Assembly: GCA_963621535.1 (NCBI GenBank) | Contig: CAVFEQ010000003.1 | Location: forward strand, 5,926 to 69,925 | DNA from: Paludibacteraceae bacterium | GTDB lineage: Bacteria; Bacillota_I; Bacilli_A; RFN20; CAG-826 | Direction of reading: 5' to 3' | Length of the DNA stretch: 64,000 bases | Shown here: one piece after another, positions 3,388 to 63,431 of the stretch | How positions within the stretch are numbered: the first letter of the stretch is position 1 | Layout: every line of letters starts with the position of its first letter | Translations under genes and position numbers: made by a program | The notes under the pieces: model-generated | What the model saw: only the letters and a program-made list of their open reading frames with translations | The model's database searches: none | Told to the model about the DNA's origin: nothing

Positions 3388-6300
3388 TTACTTGCACAAA
3401 CCATGTTTGACAGCGAGAAGATGAATGATGTTCATGATGCTCTCCAAATCATCAAGCCACTTCTCGCGCTTGGTTAGAATTAGACGCAGCTTCTTTTGCA
3501 AATAGGACATCCGGATAACCTCAAGGTAGCCGCTTAAAGCGTTGAAAAGTTCATACCCCATGCCGTCTTGTGAAGAAAAGAGGTCGGAGAGGTAAATATC
3601 AACGGTCTTGCCATTCTCATCAAGCGACCCAAATTCAGGGGAGTTCAGCAGGATATCAATCCGCTTCTTTTGCAGAAGTAAGGCCACTTCTGCGGGGATT
3701 TTGCCGTAAATGTCCTTCATTTTCTTGGCGCAGGCATCCAAATCTTGTTTCGTCTCCACATCATCTAACTCTTGGTAAAGCTCAATCTTGTCGCCGTCGT
3801 CAGCATACTTTTGCGGAATGTAAGCGTCGATTTTGAAAAGCTTCCGGGCAGTCCTATCCTTAGGCTTGATGCCTTTGGTTTTTTCGTCCACCGCTTCATT
3901 GAGCATCTTTAAGTACAAGTCCAAACCAACCGAATCAATGAACCCGGCCTGCTCAGGACCCAAGATATCCCCAGCCCCGCGGATCATGAGGTCGCGTTGG
4001 GCGATTTTGTAGCCGCTTCCTAGCTCGGTGAATTCCTGAATCGCTTTGAGCCTTTTAGCGGCGTCCTCATTCATGTTCTTCGACGGCTTATACATCAAAT
4101 AAGCATAGGCGATGCGGTTCCCTCGTCCGACGCGCCCTTTGATTTGGTAAAGCTGAGCTAAGCCAAAACGATCGGCGTCCTCGACGATGATCATGTTCGC
4201 GTTTGGGACGTCGATGCCATTTTCCACGATGGAGGTGCACACCAAAACATTGATGTCCCCATCGTAAAATCGACTCATCACCTCTTCTGACTCTTCCCGG
4301 TCCATTTGCCCGTGGACAACGCCTATTTTGGCATTGGGGATGCGCTTGGACATTTTGGTGGCGACGTTATAGATCGTCTCAACATTATTGTGCACATAAA
4401 AGGCTTGACCGCCTCTAGCGAGTTCTTTTTCCACCAATTCATCCGCGACGTCTTGTTTGAAAGGGGTGACGTAGGTTTGGATTGGCATGCGGCTAGGCGG
4501 AGCGGTATTGATTTCCGAAATCGGGCGGATGCCCACTAAGGACATTTGCAATGTCCGCGGGATCGGGGTCGCGGAAAGAGTGAGGACGTCTACGTCTTTT
4601 TTGAGCTCTTTGATCTTTTCCTTTTGCTCAACGCCGAACCTTTGCTCCTCATCGACAATCAATAAGCCCAAGTCTTTATAGGCGATGGTTTTGGACAAAA
4701 GACGATGGGTGCCGATGACAAAATCCAGGTTCCCGTCTGCAAGGTCTTTGATGATTTTCTTTTGCTCGTTGGGCGGAACAAGGCGAGAAAGCAGGCCAAG
4801 ACGGATCCCAAATGAGGCAAAACGATTCTGGGCAACCTCAAAGTGCTGCCTAGCCAAAAGGGTGGTCGGGACGAGCATCGCGACCTGTTTGCCGGAGTCG
4901 ATCGCTTTGAAAGCCGCCCGGAAGGCAATCTCGGTCTTGCCGAATCCGACGTCTCCGCAGACAAGGCGGTCCATGATTTCTGGCGACTCCATGTCGTGTT
5001 TTATTTCGTCCACCACCTTTTGCTGATCCGGAGTCAGCTCATAAGGGAATTCCCCCTCGAACTGCCTTTGCAAATCATCGTCTTCAGGGAAAGAGAACCC
5101 GCGCAGTTTCGCTCTGGCCCCATAAAGCGCGATCAAACGCTCAGCCAGCTTGTTGATTTTTTCCTGAATCTTGCCCTTCTGCTTTTTCCACTCGCCGCTA
5201 GAAAGGCGGTTCAACCTAGGCGCGGCGCCTTCTCTGCCCGCGTATTTCCTCACCAAGCGAAACTGCTCAAGAGGGACGTAAAGCGATTCATTTCCCGCGT
5301 AGGCGATATGCAAGAAGTCACGATGAATCCCATCGATCTCAATGGTCTTCACGCCTAAAAACTGGCCGATTCCATTATGCTCGTGAACCACATAATCACC
5401 CGGTCTAAGGTCTTCATAACTCCGCAAAACCTGGGAATTTTTGAATCTTGCGGTGAATCTCGTGTTGATAGAGCGGTGGCCGAAAAGCTCTGCGCTGGTT
5501 AAGCAGGCAAGCTTCAAGGAAGGGATCTCGAAGCCTTCCGCGATAGGCGTGCTCGTCAAGCCGATCTTTTCATCTATCGGCAGCGATAGCCCCTCAACCT
5601 CTTCATAAGAGAGCCCCGCGTCTTTTAAGAAAGAAACGATGGTCAGCCTTTGGTGAGGGTCGGGCAAAGAAATCAGCAATTTGTCATTTCCGTTAAGGTA
5701 ATTCTTGATGAGCTGAATGACATAGGCGAGATTCCGCGAAGGGACGTTGATGGGATGGACCAAGAATTCTTTAACGCCGAAAGAGGAGGCGAAAGCAGTC
5801 CCGTAAGCCACTTTCCGCGCATCGCCAAACGCCTGATCAAGGCTCATATACAAACTTAGACGAGAAAGGTTGAAACCCTTTAAAAAGGATTCCGCCAAAT
5901 AATCCGTAGCCTCTTGGTAAAGCTGGCTGGTGGCCTTTTGGAAATTCTCTTTGTTGGCTACAAAAATGAGTTCGGGATTGAAATATTCCAAAACGGAATG
6001 GGCTTCGCCAAGAGCGAATCCGTAGTAACGGTAAAGCTCGTTTCGATAATTCCGCGAGATGAAATTCTCAAGAGCGATCGGGAAGTTTTGCTTTAGCATC
6101 TCCGCGGATTCTGGCTTAAGGAGAAGGCAATCTTTCTGCATCCGATCATTGCCCTTTTGGGCGAAAGAGGCCAATTCATCCTCATTCAAAAACAAATCGG
6201 TTGCAGGGAGAATGGAAACCTCGTCTATTTTCTTGTTGGATTCCTGCGATCTCGGATTGAAAAAGCGGATCGATTCAATCTCATCGCCAAAAAACTCCAG

Positions 6301-6867
6301 ACGAATCGGATCCAAATAGGAAACGGAATAAATATCCAAGATGTCTCCGCGCGAGGCGAACTGCAGACTTTTCTCAACGTGGGAAGTCCCTTGGTAGCCA
6401 AGATTGACCAGTTTCTCTTTTAAGGTCGCCAAATCATAGGAATCACCTACTTTGAAACGAATCGTCTCCTCTTTGAATCTTTCGGGGGAAGGCAAGTAGC
6501 GAAGCAAACCGGAAGGGTGGGTGATCAAGATCTTGGGGCCGGGTTCGCCTAGCTGCCCAAGCGCATAAAGCCTTTGCGAAAGCAATTCCCTAGAAGAGGA
6601 AAGGGCCTCCGCTCTTAATAGCTCGTCATTTGGAAAAAAGACAATTTGGTTTTCGCTCGCGAAGTTGAGCAGAAATTCATAGAGCTTCTGCGCGTTATAT
6701 TGATTAGAGCAAACAATCGCGTAATTCCCGGGTCTTTTTTTGAAAATCGCCGCAAAAGCCAGCCCAACGCCTAAAGTCTCATCAATTACTAGATCCCCTT
6801 TTTTCTGCAAAAGAGGGGAAACAAAATCCAAATCGTATATCTTGCTTAAGAGTTCGCTTTGATCCAT
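3388..6867 (-). CDS. mfd: transcription-repair coupling factor
   Basis: 1159 aa. UvrB-homology N-terminus, superfamily-2 helicase motifs (GDVGFGKTE, DEEQRFG) and a TRCF C-terminal domain. Confidence 0.95.
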   Translation of the reverse strand: MDQSELLSKIYDLDFVSPLLQKKGDLVIDETLGVGLAFAAIFKKRPGNYAIVCSNQYNAQKLYEFLLNFASENQIVFFPNDELLRAEALSSSRELLSQRLYALGQLGEPGPKILITHPSGLLRYLPSPERFKEETIRFKVGDSYDLATLKEKLVNLGYQGTSHVEKSLQFASRGDILDIYSVSYLDPIRLEFFGDEIESIRFFNPRSQESNKKIDEVSILPATDLFLNEDELASFAQKGNDRMQKDCLLLKPESAEMLKQNFPIALENFISRNYRNELYRYYGFALGEAHSVLEYFNPELIFVANKENFQKATSQLYQEATDYLAESFLKGFNLSRLSLYMSLDQAFGDARKVAYGTAFASSFGVKEFLVHPINVPSRNLAYVIQLIKNYLNGNDKLLISLPDPHQRLTIVSFLKDAGLSYEEVEGLSLPIDEKIGLTSTPIAEGFEIPSLKLACLTSAELFGHRSINTRFTARFKNSQVLRSYEDLRPGDYVVHEHNGIGQFLGVKTIEIDGIHRDFLHIAYAGNESLYVPLEQFRLVRKYAGREGAAPRLNRLSSGEWKKQKGKIQEKINKLAERLIALYGARAKLRGFSFPEDDDLQRQFEGEFPYELTPDQQKVVDEIKHDMESPEIMDRLVCGDVGFGKTEIAFRAAFKAIDSGKQVAMLVPTTLLARQHFEVAQNRFASFGIRLGLLSRLVPPNEQKKIIKDLADGNLDFVIGTHRLLSKTIAYKDLGLLIVDEEQRFGVEQKEKIKELKKDVDVLTLSATPIPRTLQMSLVGIRPISEINTAPPSRMPIQTYVTPFKQDVADELVEKELARGGQAFYVHNNVETIYNVATKMSKRIPNAKIGVVHGQMDREESEEVMSRFYDGDINVLVCTSIVENGIDVPNANMIIVEDADRFGLAQLYQIKGRVGRGNRIAYAYLMYKPSKNMNEDAAKRLKAIQEFTELGSGYKIAQRDLMIRGAGDILGPEQAGFIDSVGLDLYLKMLNEAVDEKTKGIKPKDRTARKLFKIDAYIPQKYADDGDKIELYQELDDVETKQDLDACAKKMKDIYGKIPAEVALLLQKKRIDILLNSPEFGSLDENGKTVDIYLSDLFSSQDGMGYELFNALSGYLEVIRMSYLQKKLRLILTKREKWLDDLESIMNIIHLLAVKHGLCK

Positions 6868-6874
6868 GACTTAT

Positions 6875-7435
6875 TCATCTGTTGTAGTGGTTCATAGCGT
6901 AGGTAAACCCTTTTTGCAAAGCGTCCCTAATGGCTTTCGATGCGTTTTCGATTCCTTCTTCCACCAGCGTCTTTTCTTCGCCGCTAGGTTTGCCAAGAAC
7001 CCAATCGACCCCTGAATGAGGCGGCTCGCCGATGCCGATTCGAATGCGTGGGAAGGCTTCGCTCTTTATGCTTGCGATGATCGAGCGCATTCCATTATGC
7101 GATCCGCTGCTCCCCGATGGACGAAGGCGAATCTTGCCAGGGGGCAAGGCCATATCATCGTAAACGACGATCAAATCAGCGGGAGCGATTTTGTAGTAAT
7201 CCATCAAGGGCCGAACGAAATCGCCGGAAAGGTTCATAAACGTTTCAGGCTTAGCAATAATAAGAGGTTCAGGGAAGGAGGGATCTTTGACGATGGCGTA
7301 AACGCCGCTAAATTTTTGGTGGTCGAAATCAACTTTGCACATTTCCGCAAACTTATCCACCGCCATAAAACCCATGTTGTGACGGGTTGATTCGTATTGC
7401 TTTCCCGGATTGCCGAGCCCAACGACTAATTTCAT
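6875..7435 (-). CDS. pth: peptidyl-tRNA hydrolase
   Basis: 186 aa. MKLVVGLGNPG...TRHNMGF matches the canonical Pth N-terminus. pth-mfd is a conserved pair. Confidence 0.95.
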   Translation of the reverse strand: MKLVVGLGNPGKQYESTRHNMGFMAVDKFAEMCKVDFDHQKFSGVYAIVKDPSFPEPLIIAKPETFMNLSGDFVRPLMDYYKIAPADLIVVYDDMALPPGKIRLRPSGSSGSHNGMRSIIASIKSEAFPRIRIGIGEPPHSGVDWVLGKPSGEEKTLVEEGIENASKAIRDALQKGFTYAMNHYNR

Positions 7436-8117: not shown

Positions 8118-8729
8118 ATGCCTAGAACTGCCGAACAGAACAAAGCCTTAAAAGAGAAAAGGAAGAATCGCCTTCTCAACGTTTCGCTTAAGATGTTCGC
8201 CACAAAAGGGTATGCGCTTGTCACGACCGACAGCATCAGCAGAGGGGCGCGCATTTCTCATGGCCTCTTCTACCATTACTTCTCTTCCAAAGACGATGCC
8301 TTTCAGGAAACGGTTCGCCATTTCCTTCTCGGCTCAAACAGTCCCTTTTTAAGCGCGGCGAATATGAAAGCCTACCATGGAGTCGATGGCCTTAAGAAAT
8401 TTTTCGAAATCGCAGATCTTGTCCAAAAAGGGGATCAGACCAACCTTTACATGGCGAAAATCATCCTCGACATCGAAAAAGGATCGGCCAAGGGACCTGC
8501 CATAAAAGAAGCGAAAGAACGTTTCGATTTCCCCGGAACTTTCGAAAGGCTCATCTCCGAAGGCCAAAAGGAAGGCGAGGTAATCGCGGGAGACCCAAAG
8601 GAAATCACCTCGGCTTTCTACAACATGTTCGTCGGGCTTATTGATAGTTTGCTGGCGGGGGAAGAGAAAACGAAAAAGCCCGTCTCCAAAGACACTTTGC
8701 TCGCGATGGCGTTAAAAAAGCCTCTCTAA
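8118..8729 (+). CDS. TetR/AcrR family transcriptional regulator
   Basis: Start set at ATG 8118, after RBS AAAAGGAG. N-terminal HTH (LKMFATKGYALVTTDSISRGARISHGLFYHYFSSKDDAF) fits the TetR family. TTGACA -35 near 8071. Confidence 0.75.
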   Translation: MPRTAEQNKALKEKRKNRLLNVSLKMFATKGYALVTTDSISRGARISHGLFYHYFSSKDDAFQETVRHFLLGSNSPFLSAANMKAYHGVDGLKKFFEIADLVQKGDQTNLYMAKIILDIEKGSAKGPAIKEAKERFDFPGTFERLISEGQKEGEVIAGDPKEITSAFYNMFVGLIDSLLAGEEKTKKPVSKDTLLAMALKKPL

Positions 8730-42059: not shown

Positions 42060-42360
42060 AAAATAGTTTCAATCCACAGACCTTGGGAAAAGCCTTGTTA
42101 AAAAAGAGGATAAAAAGGAAAAGAGGCGATGCCCTTGCGCTTTTTTCAAAAGCCAGGGAAGTGAAGGAAGAAGTAAGCGTTACCGTTTTTCCACAAAGCA
42201 AAAAACCGCCTAAAGTTTTCCACAATTTGTCCACATTTTCATTTTGTGGAAAACCAAAATAAAGGCGATTGCTAGCCTTTTCCGTCCTTGGATTGTGGAC
42301 AAATCAAAATTGCGCTCATTTTTAATGAAAAGCACTGTGGAAAATGCTTTAATCTTGTGC
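42060..42360. other. oriC, upstream DnaA-box cluster
   Basis: Seven or more 9-mers within two mismatches of TTATCCACA. Plus-strand boxes at 42071, 42187, 42216 and 42227; complementary-strand boxes at 42245, 42294 and 42336. Located in the rpmH-dnaA intergenic region. Confidence 0.8.
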
Positions 42361-42374
42361 AGGAAAAATCGCTT

Positions 42375-43742
42375 ATGTCCGAAACAATCTCTCAACTCAC
42401 GGCCATCTGGAACCGTTCGCTCCAACGCATCAAGAAAAACTTGGGCGACAACCACATCTACGACACCTTCTTCGGGGGCAGCTACATTGACTCCGTCCAA
42501 GGGGATACTTTGGTGGTGATCGTCAATTCCGAGCTCGCCGCGATGGTTTTGACGAATTCCTACACAAGCCTAGTCGAGGAATGCGTCCAGGCGGAGACCT
42601 CGACCAATTACAAAGTGACTTTCCTTAGCCAAAGTAATGGAGTTTCCCAAACCAGCAAGGAAAAAGCCCCGGAGAAGCCGCTTTTCTTCCAAGAGGCCAA
42701 ACTGGACCCCCGCTACACGTTTGACAGCTTCGTCGTCGGGGCCAGCAACCGCGAAGCCTACCAAGCCTCTTTGATGATTTCCAGAAACCCGGGGAATTTA
42801 TACAACCCGCTTCTTTTGCATTCCCAGTCTGGGTTAGGTAAAACCCATCTGCTCCAGGCAATCGGCAACGAAATCAAAACCCTGCGCCCGATGGCCAAGG
42901 TGCTTTATATCTCCGCCGCGGATTTCGTCGACGAATACATCAAATTCGCCACCGGCTACAAGCAAGGCCAAACCCTCACCCAATATTTCAAAAACGACGT
43001 CGACGCCCTTTTGATTGACGATATCCAGTTCTTAATCGGAAAAGCCAAAACGATGGAGATGTTCTTCGTCGTTTTCCAAAGCCTCTACACTCAAGGGAAG
43101 CAGATCGTCATCACCAGTGACCAAGACCCAAGCAAGTTAGATGGGCTCGATGAGCGCCTTAAAACCCGCTTTTCCAGCGGGCTGGTGCTCCCGATCCAAA
43201 AGCCGGATTTGCAGACTTCGCAGGCGATTCTCCGTTCCAAAATCGAGGCGAACAACCTCAGTGTGAGCGATTTCGATGAGGATGTGATCGAGTTTTTGGC
43301 CTCGCGCTTCTCTTCAAGCGTCCGCGACCTAGAAGGCGCTTTGAACCGCTTGCTTTTCTACACGGTCAATCTTGAGCCGACCAAGCACATCGACTTGCCC
43401 ACCGCGAAGAAAGCGATATCCTCTCTTATTTCCGCGCAGGACGAAGCCGGGAAGCTAAGCGAAGAGAAAATCATCTCCGTCGTCGCGGATTATTACTCCC
43501 TGCCCCCAGCCCAAATCACAGGCAAATTGCGCACAAGCCGCATCGCGATGGCTAGACACATCGCAATGTACCTGATCCGCACCCTTCTAGACACCCCGTT
43601 CACGAAAATCGGCCAGACCTTCGGAGGCAAAGACCACGCGACGGTGATGAACGGTGTGAACAAAGTGGAGAAATCGTTGAAAAGCGACCCCGACATGAAG
43701 AAAGCCGTCGACGAGCTTATTGCTCGCTTGAAAGCTAAATAA
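42375..43742 (+). CDS. dnaA: chromosomal replication initiator protein DnaA
   Basis: Start set at ATG 42375 (MSETISQLTAIWN). AAA+ Walker A GLGKTHLL. C-terminal DNA-binding helix. Flanked by DnaA boxes. Confidence 0.95.
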   Translation: MSETISQLTAIWNRSLQRIKKNLGDNHIYDTFFGGSYIDSVQGDTLVVIVNSELAAMVLTNSYTSLVEECVQAETSTNYKVTFLSQSNGVSQTSKEKAPEKPLFFQEAKLDPRYTFDSFVVGASNREAYQASLMISRNPGNLYNPLLLHSQSGLGKTHLLQAIGNEIKTLRPMAKVLYISAADFVDEYIKFATGYKQGQTLTQYFKNDVDALLIDDIQFLIGKAKTMEMFFVVFQSLYTQGKQIVITSDQDPSKLDGLDERLKTRFSSGLVLPIQKPDLQTSQAILRSKIEANNLSVSDFDEDVIEFLASRFSSSVRDLEGALNRLLFYTVNLEPTKHIDLPTAKKAISSLISAQDEAGKLSEEKIISVVADYYSLPPAQITGKLRTSRIAMARHIAMYLIRTLLDTPFTKIGQTFGGKDHATVMNGVNKVEKSLKSDPDMKKAVDELIARLKAK

Positions 43743-43759: not shown

Positions 43760-43860
43760 TGGCTGTGGTAAACTATTTCCTAGCAGAAAAGGGAGTTATC
43801 CACAATTTCCACCGACCTTATTATTGTTAAATAAAATCCGTAAACGAATTTAAATAAGGA
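43760..43860. other. oriC downstream element: DnaA boxes plus AT-rich unwinding region
   Basis: Perfect TTATCCACA at 43796-43804 and TGTGGTAAA at about 43764. An AT-rich run of about 45 nt (ttattattgttaaataaaatccgtaaacgaatttaaataa) precedes dnaN. Confidence 0.7.
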
Positions 43861-52201: not shown

Positions 52202-53485
52202 ATGATCGACATCAAATTAATCTTAGAGAAGCCGGATTATGTCGTGGCTGCCCTCAAAAAGAAAGACTGGGACTTTGATCCTAAGCCCATCCAAGAGCTT
52301 TCAGAGAAGCGTTTGACCCTCCTAAAAGAGGTTGAGGCCAGCAAAATGGAGCAAAATCGCCTCTCCAAATCCGTCCCCAGCGTGAAAAAAGAAGGCGGGG
52401 ACGTGCAGGCGATATTCGCGAAAGTCAAAGCCCTAAGCGCCGAGAGCAAAGCTGCCGAGCAAGAGCTTGGGAAAATCGAAGAGGAAATCAAATCCCTCAT
52501 CGAGGTGCTGCCTAATCTTCCTGACGACGATCTCGTCGGCGGAGAGAAAGAGAACAACAAGCCGATCTACCATTTCGGCGCAGAGCCCAAATTCGAAGGC
52601 TTCACCCCGAAAGACCATGTTGCGCTCGCGGAATCTCTTGGCCTTATCGACTACAAACGCGCGGCTAAGATCTCTGGCAGCGGCACCTGGATTTATACCA
52701 ATCTCGGCGCCCGCCTAGAATGGGCGCTTCTTAACTATTTCATGGAGAATCACATCGCCGATGGCTATGAGATGATCCTCCCTCCCCACATCTTGAATTA
52801 CGATTCCGGCTACACTGCTGGCCAGTTCCCCAAATTCAAAGAGGACGTTTTCTGGCTTGAAGGCACCGAACCGCGCAAGTTCCTCCTTCCAACCGCCGAA
52901 ACCGCATTGGTGAATCTTCATCGCAACGAGATTCTTTCTCTTGATGACCTTCCCCGCAAATATTTCGCCTATACCCCCTGCTACCGCAAAGAAGCCGGCT
53001 CTTACCGCACTGAGGAGCGAGGCATGATCCGCGGCTATCAGTTCGATAAGGTCGAGATGGTCCAATACACCACCAAAGAAGGCAGCGATGCCGCTTTTGA
53101 CGAGATGGTGGCTAAAGCCAAACGCCTTGTTGAAGGGCTCGGCCTCTGCTATCAAGTCGACAAGCTCGCCGCAGGCGACTGCTCTCATTCGATGGCGAGG
53201 ACCTATGACATCGAAGTTTGGATCCCCTCCATGCATATCTATAAAGAGGTCTCTTCCGTGTCTAACGCCCGCGACTATCAGGCGCGCCGCGGCATGATCC
53301 GCTATCGCGATGGAGAAGGCAAAGTCCAATTCTGCCACACGCTTAATGGCTCTGGCCTTGCTACTTCGCGCGTTTATCCCGCTATCCTTGAGCAATTCCA
53401 GCAAGCCGACGGCTCCGTCGTTATCCCCGAACCACTTAGAAAGTTCATGGGTGGCATGGAAGTGCTTAAGCCCATCAAAAAATAG
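52202..53485 (+). CDS. serS: seryl-tRNA synthetase
   Basis: 427 aa. N-terminal coiled-coil arm and class-II motifs. Confidence 0.95.
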   Translation: MIDIKLILEKPDYVVAALKKKDWDFDPKPIQELSEKRLTLLKEVEASKMEQNRLSKSVPSVKKEGGDVQAIFAKVKALSAESKAAEQELGKIEEEIKSLIEVLPNLPDDDLVGGEKENNKPIYHFGAEPKFEGFTPKDHVALAESLGLIDYKRAAKISGSGTWIYTNLGARLEWALLNYFMENHIADGYEMILPPHILNYDSGYTAGQFPKFKEDVFWLEGTEPRKFLLPTAETALVNLHRNEILSLDDLPRKYFAYTPCYRKEAGSYRTEERGMIRGYQFDKVEMVQYTTKEGSDAAFDEMVAKAKRLVEGLGLCYQVDKLAAGDCSHSMARTYDIEVWIPSMHIYKEVSSVSNARDYQARRGMIRYRDGEGKVQFCHTLNGSGLATSRVYPAILEQFQQADGSVVIPEPLRKFMGGMEVLKPIKK

Positions 53486-53520
53486 CAGCGTTCGCCTTCC
53501 CGCTCAAAAATAAAGTCTAA

Positions 53521-53566
53521 AAATCCCGTTCCCCTTGTTCTTAACGTGACGGAACGGGATTTTTTA
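53521..53566 (+). terminator. rho-independent terminator after serS
   Basis: ATCCCGTTCC...GGAACGGGAT followed by TTTTT. Confidence 0.65.
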
Positions 53567-53708
53567 GATTCGCTGCAGGGCACGTTTCGTTTTGGCGTGT
53601 TTGGCAATTATTGTCGATAAAGGCTGCTTTCATCAGTCTAATTTGGTGATTCCCGCTCTGATTTAAAGCATTAGCACCTCTTGCTTTAGACGAAACAAAA
53701 AATAAATT

Positions 53709-53793
53709 CATGTTCGAAAATTTGTTAAAACAAAGGATATTTCATGTTCGAAAATTTGTAAAAAACACTGTTTTGTCATGTTCGAAAATTTGT
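53709..53793 (+). repeat. three 17-bp direct repeats CATGTTCGAAAATTTGT spaced exactly 34 bp apart
   Basis: Exact copies at 53709-53725, 53743-53759 and 53777-53793. A secondary CACTGTTTTG repeat occurs at 53767 and 53795. A TATAAT -10 at 53816 and the ATPase start at 53846 follow. Confidence 0.85.
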
Positions 53794-53845
53794 TCACTGT
53801 TTTGTAATAATCCCATATAATCGTTGTTAATAGAGGCGCTTTGGC

Positions 53846-55219
53846 ATGGTTATTCAAAGAAAAGCATACAAAGAATTGGCAAAATGGAAAAATGGCTCCG
53901 ATAAAGGGAAAGCTGTTTTGATAAAGGGGGCCAGACGAGTCGGCAAAAGCTTCCTGGCCGAAGAGTTTGCTAAAAACGAGTATAAAAGTTACATCTTGAT
54001 CGATTTTTCCAGCCCATTGAATGGCACTTTGCAGACCTTCCAAAAATATGGGAACAAGTACAGCCTAGATGAATTTTTCAACCAACTTTCCGTTATATAT
54101 TCAACCCCTCTTTACAGAAGGCAATCTGTTTTCGTTTTTGACGAGGTTCAACGATTTCCAAAGGCGAGGGAATTGATAAAACATCTTGTCGCGGATGGGA
54201 GGTACGATTTCATCGAAACGGGTTCTTTAATAACGATAAAGAAGAACGCGAAAGATATCTTGATTCCATCTGAAGAAGAAGAAATTTCGATGTATCCTTT
54301 GGATTTTGAAGAATTTCTCACCGCTATAGGCGACCAAGTGACTTATCCGACTTTGAAGCAAGCTTATGAAGATCGGAAACCGCTTGGGAATATCCTCAAG
54401 GCTGTGAATGAAAAATTACGACTTTACATGATCATCGGAGGGATGCCGCAGGCTGTCTTGAAATATATCGAAACAAGAAACTATGACGATGTCGAAAAAA
54501 CAAAGAGGAGCATCGTTGGGCTTTATAGAAAAGACATCGTTAAATACGCTGAAGGTTATGTTGCCGAAGCAACCGCGGTGTTCAATGCAATCCCCTCTCA
54601 ACTTTCTCACCATGATAAAAAGATCAAGTATTCATCGCTTAATGAAGGCGACCGTTTTTCGCGCTACAGGGACGCACTTAATTGGATAAACGATTCAATG
54701 GTCGGGCTATTGTGCTATGGATTAGATGAGCCTGGTGCTTTGGATGGTTTTTCGCTGCAAACGAACAAAATTAAATGTTATATGGCGGACACTGGGCTTT
54801 TGCTTACCTTGGCTTCCGGAAACGATTATCTTGGAAGTGAATTCTATAAGTCTTTCGTGCTTGGAAAACTTTCGATCAATAAAGGAATGATGACGGAAAA
54901 CCTAATCGCCCAGATTTTCGCCTCGAATGGCAGGCCTCTGAGATTTTACGAAAACTCCGTTAAGAAAAAGACGAAGCTTGATGAAAGTAATGAAAGAGAA
55001 AAAATCACAAAGCACGAAGTTGATTTTCTTATAAAGCAAAACGGAAAAACTACACCCGTGGAGGTCAAAAGCGGAAATCTCAAAGAACACGCGTCCTTAG
55101 ATTACTTCTTCGATCGTTTCAAAGAGAAAACGAATAAGCCTATCGTTCTGACAAAAGGAGATCTGAAGGAAACGGAAGATTATACGTATCTTCCTTTGCC
55201 GATGGCATATTTCTTGTAA
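53846..55219 (+). CDS. AAA+ ATPase with DUF4143-type C-terminal domain (COG1373 family)
   Basis: 457 aa. Walker A GARRVGKS and Walker B VFVFDEVQ. About 40% GC versus about 52% in the flanks. Confidence 0.75.
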   Translation: MVIQRKAYKELAKWKNGSDKGKAVLIKGARRVGKSFLAEEFAKNEYKSYILIDFSSPLNGTLQTFQKYGNKYSLDEFFNQLSVIYSTPLYRRQSVFVFDEVQRFPKARELIKHLVADGRYDFIETGSLITIKKNAKDILIPSEEEEISMYPLDFEEFLTAIGDQVTYPTLKQAYEDRKPLGNILKAVNEKLRLYMIIGGMPQAVLKYIETRNYDDVEKTKRSIVGLYRKDIVKYAEGYVAEATAVFNAIPSQLSHHDKKIKYSSLNEGDRFSRYRDALNWINDSMVGLLCYGLDEPGALDGFSLQTNKIKCYMADTGLLLTLASGNDYLGSEFYKSFVLGKLSINKGMMTENLIAQIFASNGRPLRFYENSVKKKTKLDESNEREKITKHEVDFLIKQNGKTTPVEVKSGNLKEHASLDYFFDRFKEKTNKPIVLTKGDLKETEDYTYLPLPMAYFL

Positions 55220-55315
55220 TGACGGAGCGTAACCTAAATAGTTTAATTGAATTCTGCTTCTAGGTGGCGCAAGAGAAAACTTAATGCGTTATCTATAGGT
55301 TTTGCTATAATCCTA

Positions 55316-55404
55316 GTGCCATCGCGAGAGATGAGCGACGAACCAGGTCAGGTGGGGAACCAAGCAGCCTTAAATCGTTTGCCCCTGTGCGGTGGTTTTT
55401 TTAT
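55316..55404 (+). ncRNA. ffs: signal recognition particle RNA, short 4.5S-type
   Basis: TATAAT at 55306-55311. Helix-8/domain-IV motif ACCAGGUCAGGU-GGGGAACC-AAGCAGCC matches E. coli ACCAGGUCAGGUCCGGAAGGAAGCAGCC. The GGAA tetraloop-closing pairs are swapped (GG/CC instead of CC/GG), a compensatory covariation. The 5' and 3' ends pair (CCAUCGCGAG with CUGUGCGGUGG). A U-run terminates it. Upstream of tadA. Confidence 0.65.
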
Positions 55405-55414
55405 TATTAGACCC

Positions 55415-55879
55415 ATGGATAAGAAAACAGATATTGCCTTTATGCTTGAGGCCCTAAAAGAAGCACAACTGGCTTATGACGCTGGAGAAGTGCCTGTTGG
55501 AGCAGTTGTAGTTCGAAACGGGGAAATTATCGGCAGAGGCCACAACGAACGAGAGAAAGATCTCGATATTTCCTCTCATGCCGAGATAAACGCCCTAAAA
55601 GAGGCGTCGAAGACACTTAGAAGATGGGATTTAAGCGACTGTTCGCTTTATGTCACTTTAGAGCCTTGCTTAATGTGCGCCGGAGCTATCCTACAAAGCA
55701 AAATTCGCTTTCTGAGTTTTGGAACTTTGGATAAAAAAGCGGGCGCAATTTTGTCAATTTATCATGTCTTCGATACAAATAAAGCATACATGCCCCCGTT
55801 AATTGACAAAGGGCTGTGCGAGGCCTTGTGTTCTGGAATTTTGACGAGATTTTTCACTGAAAAACTGAGATCAAAATAA
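55415..55879 (+). CDS. tadA: tRNA-specific adenosine deaminase
   Basis: Start at ATG 55415 (MDKKTD). CDA zinc motifs HAEINAL and PCLMCAGAI. Confidence 0.9.
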   Translation: MDKKTDIAFMLEALKEAQLAYDAGEVPVGAVVVRNGEIIGRGHNEREKDLDISSHAEINALKEASKTLRRWDLSDCSLYVTLEPCLMCAGAILQSKIRFLSFGTLDKKAGAILSIYHVFDTNKAYMPPLIDKGLCEALCSGILTRFFTEKLRSK

Positions 55880-63328: not shown

Positions 63329-63431
63329 CCCGATAATAGTATGACATTTTTCATTAAACTTTCACTATTTTTTCACTATTTTTCATTAGACGGGAGTGAC
63401 AATAAGTTTGTTTAATTTGGCACGAACGCCT

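Follow-up and report, generated by a model that had tools for sequence, protein, structure and literature searches.

The gene for archaeal Orc1/Cdc6 adjoins repeated cognate sites, and a monomer of this protein contacts two to three helical turns of DNA via two modules. Moreover, dnaA, which encodes an AAA+ protein of the initiator type, has an array of its own asymmetric sites in front of it, through which it is autoregulated, and plasmid iterons recur at a period of approximately 22 bp, that is, two turns. In the case of the prokaryotic STAND defence proteins, a fused effector nuclease is typical. The locus analysed here lies within a 64,000-nucleotide stretch of DNA from a Paludibacteraceae bacterium (GenBank assembly GCA_963621535.1, contig CAVFEQ010000003.1, positions 5,926 to 69,925 of the forward strand), the whole of which is called the window below. 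In this window, a gene for a 457-aa ATPase with AAA_14 and DUF4143 domains is preceded by an array of three direct repeats at a 34-bp period, and, as judged from sequence comparison, an array spaced by 33/34 bp is a hallmark of the whole ATPase-nuclease family.

Proteins that combine AAA_14 and DUF4143 (COG1373) make up PDC-S01, which is reported to be among the most frequent candidate defence genes, with about 39,000 copies in one survey and the highest frequency of any single locus in rumen genomes (PMC12988326, PMC13356809). Archaeal members are numerous as well (PMC12988326). The candidacy was derived from 'guilt by embedding', and validation is pending for most such candidates (NAR gkag225); a trial against T4, T5, and T7 included one PDC-S01, which did not appear among the candidates that gave protection (bioRxiv 10.1101/2024.09.26.614923). 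DUF4143 itself is listed within the PD-(D/E)xK superfamily (PMC3424549). A preliminary description of the window, which was made from its letters, had called the DUF4143/COG1373 ATPases widespread but uncharacterised, and this agrees with the literature searched. In the literature on DUF4143, COG1373, PDC-S01, and guilt by embedding, no upstream repeats were found described, most subscription journals being outside the search.

The sequence CATGTTCGAAAATTTGT occurs exactly at 53709–53725, 53743–53759, and 53777–53793 on the + strand, 34 bp apart, with TTCGAA inside each copy, precisely as the preliminary description had reported. The order that it had given for what follows, namely, secondary copies, a TATAAT, and the ATPase start, was also found, at 53766/53795, 53816–53821, and 53846, respectively. 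The array and the elements next to it are as follows.

53707–53808, + strand: array of three 34-bp units, each a conserved box and a diverged spacer (repeat search, Tandem Repeats Finder, homologous arrays)
53709–53728, + strand: box 1, CATGTTCGAAAATTTGTTAA, in the 20-nt family register from the Gibbs alignment; the 17-mer is 53709–53725
53743–53762, + strand: box 2, CATGTTCGAAAATTTGTAAA (sequence, Gibbs register)
53777–53796, + strand: box 3, CATGTTCGAAAATTTGTTCA (sequence, Gibbs register); its 3' end overlaps the -35 hexamer
53793–53798 and 53816–53821, + strand: predicted sigma-70-like promoter, TTCACT and TATAAT with a 17-nt spacer (consensus scan, 10/12 matches)
53832–53836, + strand: Shine-Dalgarno-like AGAGG, 9 nt 5' of the ATG at 53846 (sequence)
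53846–55219, + strand: gene for the 457-aa AAA_14 + DUF4143 ATPase-nuclease (Pfam, PADLOC PDC-S01, AlphaFold2 model)

All three boxes are on the + strand, the last of them ending 53 bp 5' of the ATG, and the spacers (TAAAACAAAGGATATTT, AAAAAACACTGTTTTGT, and TCACTGTTTTGTAATAA) are diverged. The third copy of the 17-mer abuts the -35 hexamer, and box 3, in the 20-nt register, ends on it. Tandem Repeats Finder returned a 34-bp period with 2.6 copies at 53707–53794. When up to three mismatches were allowed on both strands of the 64-kb window, no match to CATGTTCGAAAATTTGT beyond the three copies was obtained; three such matches compare with 0.43 expected, and 1 of 100 shuffles gave three scattered matches, while none gave phased ones. 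Similarly, a window-wide scan (at least 13/14 matches, offsets of 20–60) revealed no second 33/34-bp array. The secondary repeat CACTGTTTTGT (53766–53776 and 53795–53805, 29 bp apart) was conserved in none of the homologous arrays compared and is treated as incidental or as a duplication scar. A structured RNA or DNA element in the array region was rejected, as no stable fold was found (z = +0.67).

To compare the region upstream of related genes, 80 genomic loci with ATPase relatives of 42–76% identity were collected from Treponema and other Spirochaetes, Lachnospiraceae and other Clostridia, Bacilli, Bacteroidales, Lentisphaerae, Kiritimatiellia, and others, the archaeal members being left out, and 79 upstream regions were scored. 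Using a blind detector (seed of 14 nt with 12 or more matches, all offsets between 20 and 60), the best direct-repeat array had a period of 32–35 bp in 69 of the 79 regions, compared with 5 of 486 random 250-bp windows taken from the same loci. Forty regions had a period of 33 bp and 22 had one of 34 bp, and at least three copies were present in 46. Most of the 10 regions missed by the detector show degenerate arrays by eye. Two to five direct repeats on the coding strand, just 5' of the gene, are present at nearly every locus. The 17-mer is likewise not confined to the window, since it recurs in the same orientation, phase, and position before homologous genes in unrelated genomes. More distant relatives gave the same result: arrays precede relatives of 28–45% identity on IMG/VR contigs, and copies of 25–31% identity on plasmids or secondary replicons of Glaesserella, Acinetobacter, Criblamydia, Fusobacterium, Collinsella, and Ruminococcus carry two to four boxes at 32–33 bp. 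A Parabacteroides plasmid copy, also within 25–31% identity, has two boxes 66 bp apart, which is twice 33 bp. The architecture spans at least nine phyla.

The association was also found in the reverse direction. A DNA-only scan of Joint Genome Institute (JGI) metagenomes for two boxes 34 bp apart yielded 12 loci, and in 9 of them an ATPase gene or a truncated remnant lay directly downstream in the right orientation, so that a search by DNA led back to the gene. In one of the nine (L098), a three-box array at 8425–8510 is fused to codon ~260, the promoter and the N-terminal 260 codons being deleted. Two further matches represent one orphan two-box array (L090 775–824, the same as L095 5375–5424), which is intergenic, lacks a gene, and lies in surroundings rich in palindromes resembling repetitive extragenic palindromic (REP) sequences. 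This orphan array and the L098 fusion are decay forms. The remaining match (L088) is an unrelated tandem repeat. Within the 36 kb of a complete Parabacteroides plasmid, the local box was found solely before its own gene. The preliminary view that the repeats form an ordered protein-binding array, not a chance repeat, is thus well supported, by conservation across homologous loci and not by experiment, and 'iteron-like' is apt as a description.

The homologs of 74–76% identity (L003–L009 and L020) were binned to Bacteroides uniformis, Parasutterella, Acidiphilium, Faecalibacillus, Staphylococcaceae, and Clostridia. Their contigs are mostly short (2–11 kb), with L009 and L020 on 35-kb and 127-kb contigs. 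This spread reflects either very recent inter-phylum transfer or mis-binning of a multi-copy gene that is hard to assemble.

The sequence of the box is specific to the subfamily. In the subfamily of the window protein (60–76% identity), the box is YATGTTCRAWWWTTTGT at a 34-bp period, and L004 and L009 have an almost identical 17-mer in three copies. Other groups carry their own boxes.

Segatella copri subfamily: box CTAGGAAACGTGTAAAA
Several Firmicutes: box TTGCTTTTTCGTGCAAA
Treponema: box TCAAAAAGGTGTATATT
Other subfamilies: box CTCGAAAACGTGATAAT

A W-tract together with a (G/T)TG core is common to all boxes. Gibbs alignment of 213 boxes gave the single register AAWNYTYGRWWWYGTGYAAA, with frequencies of 0.97 for T15 and 0.96 for G16, and the window box fits this register. 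The spacing between units was 33 bp in 81 pairs and 34 bp in 41 pairs. Between adjacent units, identity was 0.87–1.00 at box positions 5–16 versus 0.32–0.58 in the spacers, the box value being raised somewhat by the use of box similarity in finding the arrays. A comparison free of ascertainment was provided by orthologous arrays of five S. copri strains (L037, L044, L047, L048, and L050), in which 5 of 72 box columns vary versus 24 of 45 spacer columns (Fisher p = 2e-8). In the 130 bp 5' of the gene in the same strains, spacer divergence was unexpectedly high, 0.16–0.40 versus 0.045–0.15 at the near-neutral third codon positions, so that the spacers diverge 2.5–4 times faster than the third codon positions of the adjoining gene, in a small sample of 45 columns. 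The boxes, as these alignments show, are under purifying selection.

Which protein reads the boxes can be approached from the genes around the array. Clustering gave 60 groups for the 68 upstream neighbours and 61 for the 68 downstream ones, and neighbour strand was random (35 vs 33). Paralogs within one genome carry different boxes (L062 vs L063, L061 vs L069, and the two copies of S. copri DSM 18205), which makes a host factor unlikely. As the box changes by subfamily and paralog and none of the genes beside it is conserved, the array must carry its binder with it. The array travels only with the ATPase gene, and the ATPase is the sole protein that always accompanies it.

The ATPase looks like an AAA+ protein of the kind that binds DNA sites. 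AAA_14 was matched at residues 21–158 (E = 6.5e-24, 84.8 bits, cutoff 27) and DUF4143 at residues 229–410 (9.5e-20, 71.4 bits, cutoff 28.1); both Pfam scores are above gathering and in N-to-C order, which is the COG1373 architecture. The PADLOC PDC-S01 profile PDLC04786 aligned nearly from end to end (E = 2.4e-92, residues 1–455 with profile positions 1–430 of 439), and a second PDC-S01 profile, PDLC04792, matched at 1.6e-90; the gene stands alone. A search of NCBIfam returned nothing informative for the ATPase. In the AlphaFold2 model (mean predicted local distance difference test, pLDDT, 86; predicted template modelling score, pTM, 0.87), an AAA+ core (1–160) is followed by a helical lid (166–254), a probable winged helix, two helices, and a beta-rich C-terminal domain. 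The parts of the protein referred to below are located as follows.

53927–53950, + strand: Walker A, G28-A-R-R-V-G-K34-S35, invariant in alignments A1 and A2
54140–54145, + strand: Walker B, D99-E100, invariant in alignments A1 and A2
54608–54784, + strand: probable winged-helix region, residues ~255–313 (DSSP of the model, Foldseek; the domain assignment is by inference)
54941–55195, + strand: PD-(D/E)xK nuclease-like domain, residues 366–450, E391-x-D393 ... E406-V-K408 (alignment A2, model)

The probable winged helix, as modelled, comprises a basic HHDKKIK motif, a helix at 269–284, and a beta-hairpin at 287–293 / 309–313. In alignment A2, whose members are 41–75% identical to the window protein, D393, E406, and K408 are invariant and E391 is nearly so; this conserved, putatively catalytic PD-(D/E)xK motif lies on the beta-rich region 366–450. 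SfsA and CARF_PDDEXK profiles matched the nuclease-like region weakly. On comparison of the model with PDB using Foldseek, the top matches were Orc4, Orc5, Orc1, Cdc6, and DNA-bound archaeal Orc1 (2v1u, 2qby), with E values of 3e-6 to 1e-4 (about 1e-5) over 340–440 alignment columns, followed by clamp-loader and STAND/NLR chains. The template modelling (TM) scores against the origin recognition complex (ORC)/Cdc6 chains were low (0.25–0.3) because the domains are oriented differently. The predicted fold, AAA+ core, lid, and probable winged helix, thus appears closest to ORC/Cdc6 and is followed by a predicted PD-(D/E)xK nuclease. Searches of PDB by sequence, with the ATPase itself and with a 30-sequence profile, gave no match, that is, no solved homolog by sequence. 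A loop at residues 128–144 (window 54227–54277), between beta4 and beta5 of the AAA+ core, has a pLDDT of approximately 36 and holds the invariant residues N134, I138, and P141-S142-E143-E144. Considering these residues and a weak peak in the protein-box correlation scan described below, the loop may order on DNA or on oligomerisation.

The position of the arrays relative to promoters was also compared. The last box abuts or overlaps the predicted -35 element in the window, L002, and L009, and lies between TTGACA and TATAAT in L018, L014, and L046. In a Firmicutes group of 46–48% identity it takes the place of the -35, directly 5' of an extended -10 (TGnTATAAT), and in Bacteroidetes one box has its GTG fused to the -7 element TAnnTTTG. 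In the case of S. copri DSM 18205, the three boxes of one paralog are all downstream of the -7 element, in the leader, and those of the other are all upstream. The last box carries the Shine-Dalgarno sequence in several loci. This overlap of the arrays with predicted promoter elements fits repression by occlusion or roadblock by a DNA-bound assembly.

On these grounds we hold, with moderate confidence, that the ATPase may bind its own array cooperatively and control its own promoter. One protomer, or a fixed small oligomer, would bind each asymmetric box of approximately 17–20 bp, and contacts between neighbouring protomers would fix the spacing at 33/34 bp and lead to a cooperative, probably ATP-dependent, assembly of two to five units. 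Such an assembly would at least autoregulate transcription, most simply by repression, because the boxes overlap the promoter, the leader, or the ribosome-binding site. In this model, we infer the ATPase as binder, the cooperativity, and the direction of regulation. As 33/34 bp corresponds to about 3.1–3.2 turns, successive sites are rotated by roughly 50–85 degrees, from which a spiral or DNA-wrapping complex would follow, although this is speculation. The preliminary description had offered a repressor site, a partition site, or an origin-like iteron; among these, the partition site is the least likely because no ParA/ParB-type partner is linked.

Several points weigh against autoregulation by the ATPase. 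The case for its binding the array rests on comparison, and all the promoters are consensus predictions. As the spacing of 33/34 bp does not make up a whole number of 10.5-bp turns, the sites would be off one face of straight B-DNA. Moreover, the array position varies relative to the promoter, which is unusual for a simple operator and suggests a role beyond transcription. Covariation gave no help: weighted mutual information between protein and box (with average product correction, APC) was dominated by phylogeny, with a split at box position 14; a partial-correlation scan gave weak peaks (r <= 0.23) at residues 325–345, 119–139, and 370–401; and neither test singled out the predicted recognition helix 269–284. 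The array-gene linkage could also partly reflect block inheritance, although block inheritance alone leaves conserved boxes beside diverged spacers unexplained.

The genomic setting of the array and its gene was also compared. The features at the insertion site are listed below.

52202–53485, + strand: serS, the upstream host gene (Pfam Seryl_tRNA_N + tRNA-synt_2b)
53519–53566, + strand: terminator-like hairpin of serS, AAAAATCCCGTTCC / GGAACGGGATTTTT, then a T-run (14-bp perfect stem, 100% complementary inverted repeat)
53570–53699, no strand: insert DNA of ~130 bp (blastn: no homology to the serS-ffs spacer of relatives or to other cassettes)
55276–55310, + strand: host homology resumes (blastn); ffs promoter, TATAAT at 55306–55311
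55311–55409, + strand: ffs, small signal recognition particle (SRP) RNA, the downstream host gene (Rfam RF00169, 55.5 bits)
55424–55879, + strand: tadA, tRNA adenosine deaminase (Pfam MafB19-deam, dCMP_cyt_deam_1)

The closest serS proteins come from sources named, for instance, 'Bacilli bacterium' and 'Mollicutes bacterium'. According to blastn, host homology to L082 and L083 stops at ~53484 and is back at 55276 (L082) or 55296–55300 (L083/L086), and homology among the ATPase cassettes is limited to ~53700–55222, a span that opens with the first box and closes with the stop codon. Accordingly, the transferable unit comprises array, promoter, and gene. In L083/L084 (serS 93% identical), L085 (90%), and L086/L087 (83%), serS is followed by a short terminator, the ffs promoter, and ffs; the ATPase is absent from all of them. 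The tadA gene follows ffs in L083, L086, and L087, and the L084 and L085 contigs end inside ffs. As relatives with 83–93% identical serS thus run serS-ffs-tadA without the ATPase, array and gene constitute an acquired cassette, and the best explanation is that they (~53700–55222) form one self-contained, horizontally moving unit. L082 (serS 97%, GCA_963658395.1) carries a different, unrelated insert of 776 bp (6285–7060) at exactly the same serS-ffs site. This insert has 41% guanine plus cytosine (GC) and no open reading frame (ORF) above 85 aa, and is apparently non-coding; it neither contains a remnant of the ATPase (best tblastn E = 0.06) nor matches the window. The serS-ffs site looks like an insertion hotspot.

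The preliminary description had already proposed a horizontally acquired cassette, citing a GC content of about 40% for the ATPase gene against about 52% for serS and tadA. The proposal is supported by presence and absence in relatives, with the cassette missing at this position, and by the variety of genomic contexts, but the argument from composition is weaker than was claimed. The values are 0.404 for the ATPase, 0.524 for serS, 0.428 for tadA, 0.454 for the downstream ABC gene, and 0.496 for the window mean, so the contrast holds on the upstream side only, whereas the figure given for tadA does not stand. As proof of transfer the GC shift was set aside as weak, since tadA and the ABC gene are also at 43–45% GC.

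The neighbours of the window gene are housekeeping genes, not a defence island, and the PDC-S01 label makes the gene a candidate for defence. Unlike the window copy, the ATPase paralogs on the S. copri DSM 18205 replicon NZ_CP085933.1 (L131, 23122–64471) are in a defence-island-like setting, amid DUF262, WYL, NACHT, and IS21/IS1380 genes. Contig ends tend to fall at the array or where serS and ffs meet; the L132 contig, for instance, begins 64 nt before the ATG. These breaks fit repeat-induced or strain-heterogeneity breaks. The contig of the closest homolog (P0001, 98%) begins inside the array, and a comparison of near-identical arrays was not possible. Another repeat, small and rich in AT, lies near the end of the window at 63340–63395. 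It consists of ATTTTTCATTAAAC / ATTTTTCATTAGAC at a distance of 32 bp and two copies of TTTCACTATTTTT between them, and is unrelated to the box motif.

Among the other explanations, the one that survives best, although we regard it as unlikely, is that the ATPase binds the array but that its main role is not promoter control, the array being an iteron- or ORB-like assembly or loading site (akin to a replication origin, acting in cis in mobility or integration of the cassette, or used to store and arm the nuclease), with any effects on transcription secondary. It would account for the ORC/Cdc6-like predicted fold, the conserved nuclease triad, the array position that varies against the promoter, the spacers that diverge 2.5–4 times faster than third codon positions, and the breaking of assemblies at the array. 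Archaeal orc1/cdc6 and bacterial dnaA adjoin their own site arrays, and the window, which also encodes dnaN, recF, gyrB, and gyrA, offers an example of the latter. Six DnaA-box-like 9-mers (TTTTCCACA / TTGTCCACA) lie within 160 bp at 42187–42344, a stretch that extends across the start of the longest reading frame for dnaA (42288–43742), and a perfect TTATCCACA is found between dnaA and dnaN at 43796–43804. Moreover, the presence/absence polymorphism and the very diverse contexts of the cassette speak for this explanation, and COG1373 is among the genes co-shared between gut genera (PMC10782964). Against it, there is only one array per cassette, with no inverted copy, terminal repeat, or target duplication on the 3' side, and homology ends at the stop codon. 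The array is also without a DnaA box (the nearest, with one mismatch, is at 53612–53620), no AT-rich unwinding element stands out beyond it, and no helicase, helicase loader, or recombinase is linked. The cluster at 42187–42344 is probably the chromosomal oriC, which places the cassette ~11.5 kb from it, and a second active origin there would be odd; an origin function for the array at this location is unlikely.

It is quite improbable that the boxes are operators for an unlinked host regulator, such as a global regulator of defence or mobile genes, and that the ATPase is not the binder. Dedicated repressors are described as controlling many defence loci, RptR and BrxR being examples, and the boxes overlap predicted promoters. 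However, the boxes differ between paralogs in one genome and track the ATPase subfamily instead of the host taxon. The architecture spans at least nine phyla, each of which would need a matching regulator, no conserved neighbour encodes one, and the box on the complete plasmid is unique to the gene.

Still less probable is that the repeats act in RNA, as protein-binding or structural elements of the 5' leader, or as tandem promoter elements for RNA polymerase. In several lineages at least one box does lie between the predicted promoter and the ATG, the last one with the Shine-Dalgarno sequence, and the 3' end of the box, (G/T)TG-YAAAA(T), is similar to an extended -10. However, all boxes are 5' of the -10 element in the window and at many further loci, and would remain untranscribed from the predicted promoter; the region lacks a stable fold (z = +0.67); direct repeats cannot pair mutually; and a promoter element needs neither subfamily-specific 5' halves nor a fixed 33-bp phase. 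That the array lacks a function, having arisen by recent neutral tandem duplication or by chance, is hardly credible, for although the nearly identical 33/34-bp units of L010, L073, and L081, spacers included, indicate that tandem duplication does generate units, arrays occur at 69 of 79 loci versus 5 of 486 controls and persist down to 25% protein identity, and the boxes are conserved beside spacers of random-level identity, varying far less than these in S. copri (p = 2e-8).

If the ATPase binds its array as proposed, the array would be the first concrete handle on what PDC-S01 proteins recognise, and the prediction from it is a bacterial ORC-like ATPase that binds DNA cooperatively and in a sequence-specific way. 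Private boxes would explain how many paralogs could coexist without cross-talk. The arrays are also ready-made substrates for gel-shift, footprinting, cryo-electron microscopy (cryo-EM), and reporter assays. For annotators, two to five boxes at a 33/34-bp period with a W-tract and a GTG core provide a cis signature, which can flag functional copies, decayed copies, and orphan arrays. A broader proposal is put forward tentatively, and we think it rather doubtful: PDC-S01/DUF4143 might be a large overlooked class of ORC-like, sequence-specific ATPase-nucleases with private 33-bp-phased arrays, the array going beyond an operator's role and serving as a platform for polymerisation, storage, or arming, or as a cis site for maintenance or movement of the cassette. 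If this were true, the fast-evolving spacers would be the footprint of the protein's activity on its own array.

Three known element types were tried and rejected. A CRISPR array is defined by repeats of 23–50 bp, unique spacers of similar size, usually many units, and cas genes or a leader; the array here has boxes of 17–20 bp, spacers of 13–17 bp, and two to five units, and no Rfam match was found in the region. A transposon or insertion sequence end was rejected because the window has no reverse-strand box, homology ends at the stop codon, and no transposase is linked. A DnaA-box origin at the array was rejected, as there is no DnaA box in it and no unwinding element or helicase gene nearby.

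In comparison with described protein classes, the window protein shares with PDC-S01 both domains and a full-length hidden Markov model match, but PDC-S01 as published is defined by the protein alone, with no cis element mentioned in the literature searched. The STAND NTPases (MalT and NLR/Avs-like proteins) resemble it in the order of NTPase, helical, and winged-helix domains, and the second tier of fold matches included NRC4, WRR4A, and the maltose-system regulator entry 8bob. Unlike them, the window protein has 457 aa only and no sensor repeat domain (TPR, LRR, or WD40), and we know of no STAND protein for which an ordered cognate DNA array is a feature.

In the case of archaeal Orc1/Cdc6, the likeness lies in the modelled order of AAA+ core, lid, and C-terminal winged helix. 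By sequence, however, no Cdc6/ORC match was obtained in Pfam or NCBIfam and none in PDB, and the window protein has an extra C-terminal PD-(D/E)xK nuclease. Moreover, the boxes of its family are all direct and evenly phased at 33/34 bp and do not flank an unwinding element as in the Orc1/ORB arrangement, and the ATPase is a stand-alone cassette on bacterial chromosomes and plasmids, often with several paralogs. With dnaA, the locus shares an AAA+ gene preceded by its own site array, for which the cluster at 42187–42344 serves as the example in the window; DnaA boxes, however, are 9-mers of mixed orientation and irregular spacing that are shared by all bacteria, whereas the boxes here are 17–20 bp long, strictly phased, and private to the subfamily.

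The plasmid Rep/iteron systems (pSC101, F, P1, RK2, and R6K type) also have same-strand direct repeats of 17–20 bp beside the gene of the presumed binder, with repeat sequences private to each family member and classical autoregulation near their own promoter. They differ in period, which here is 33/34 bp instead of ~22 bp; in the protein, since Rep proteins have paired winged helices and no ATPase or nuclease, and no Rep family was matched by the AAA+ ATPase-nuclease; and in context, as the array lacks the DnaA-box or AT-rich surroundings of iteron origins, the nearest one-mismatch DnaA box being ~90 bp upstream. By analogy, the closest functional counterparts of the ATPase and its array would be the initiator-type proteins beside their own site arrays, namely, Orc1/Cdc6 with ORB sites, DnaA with DnaA boxes, and Rep proteins with iterons.

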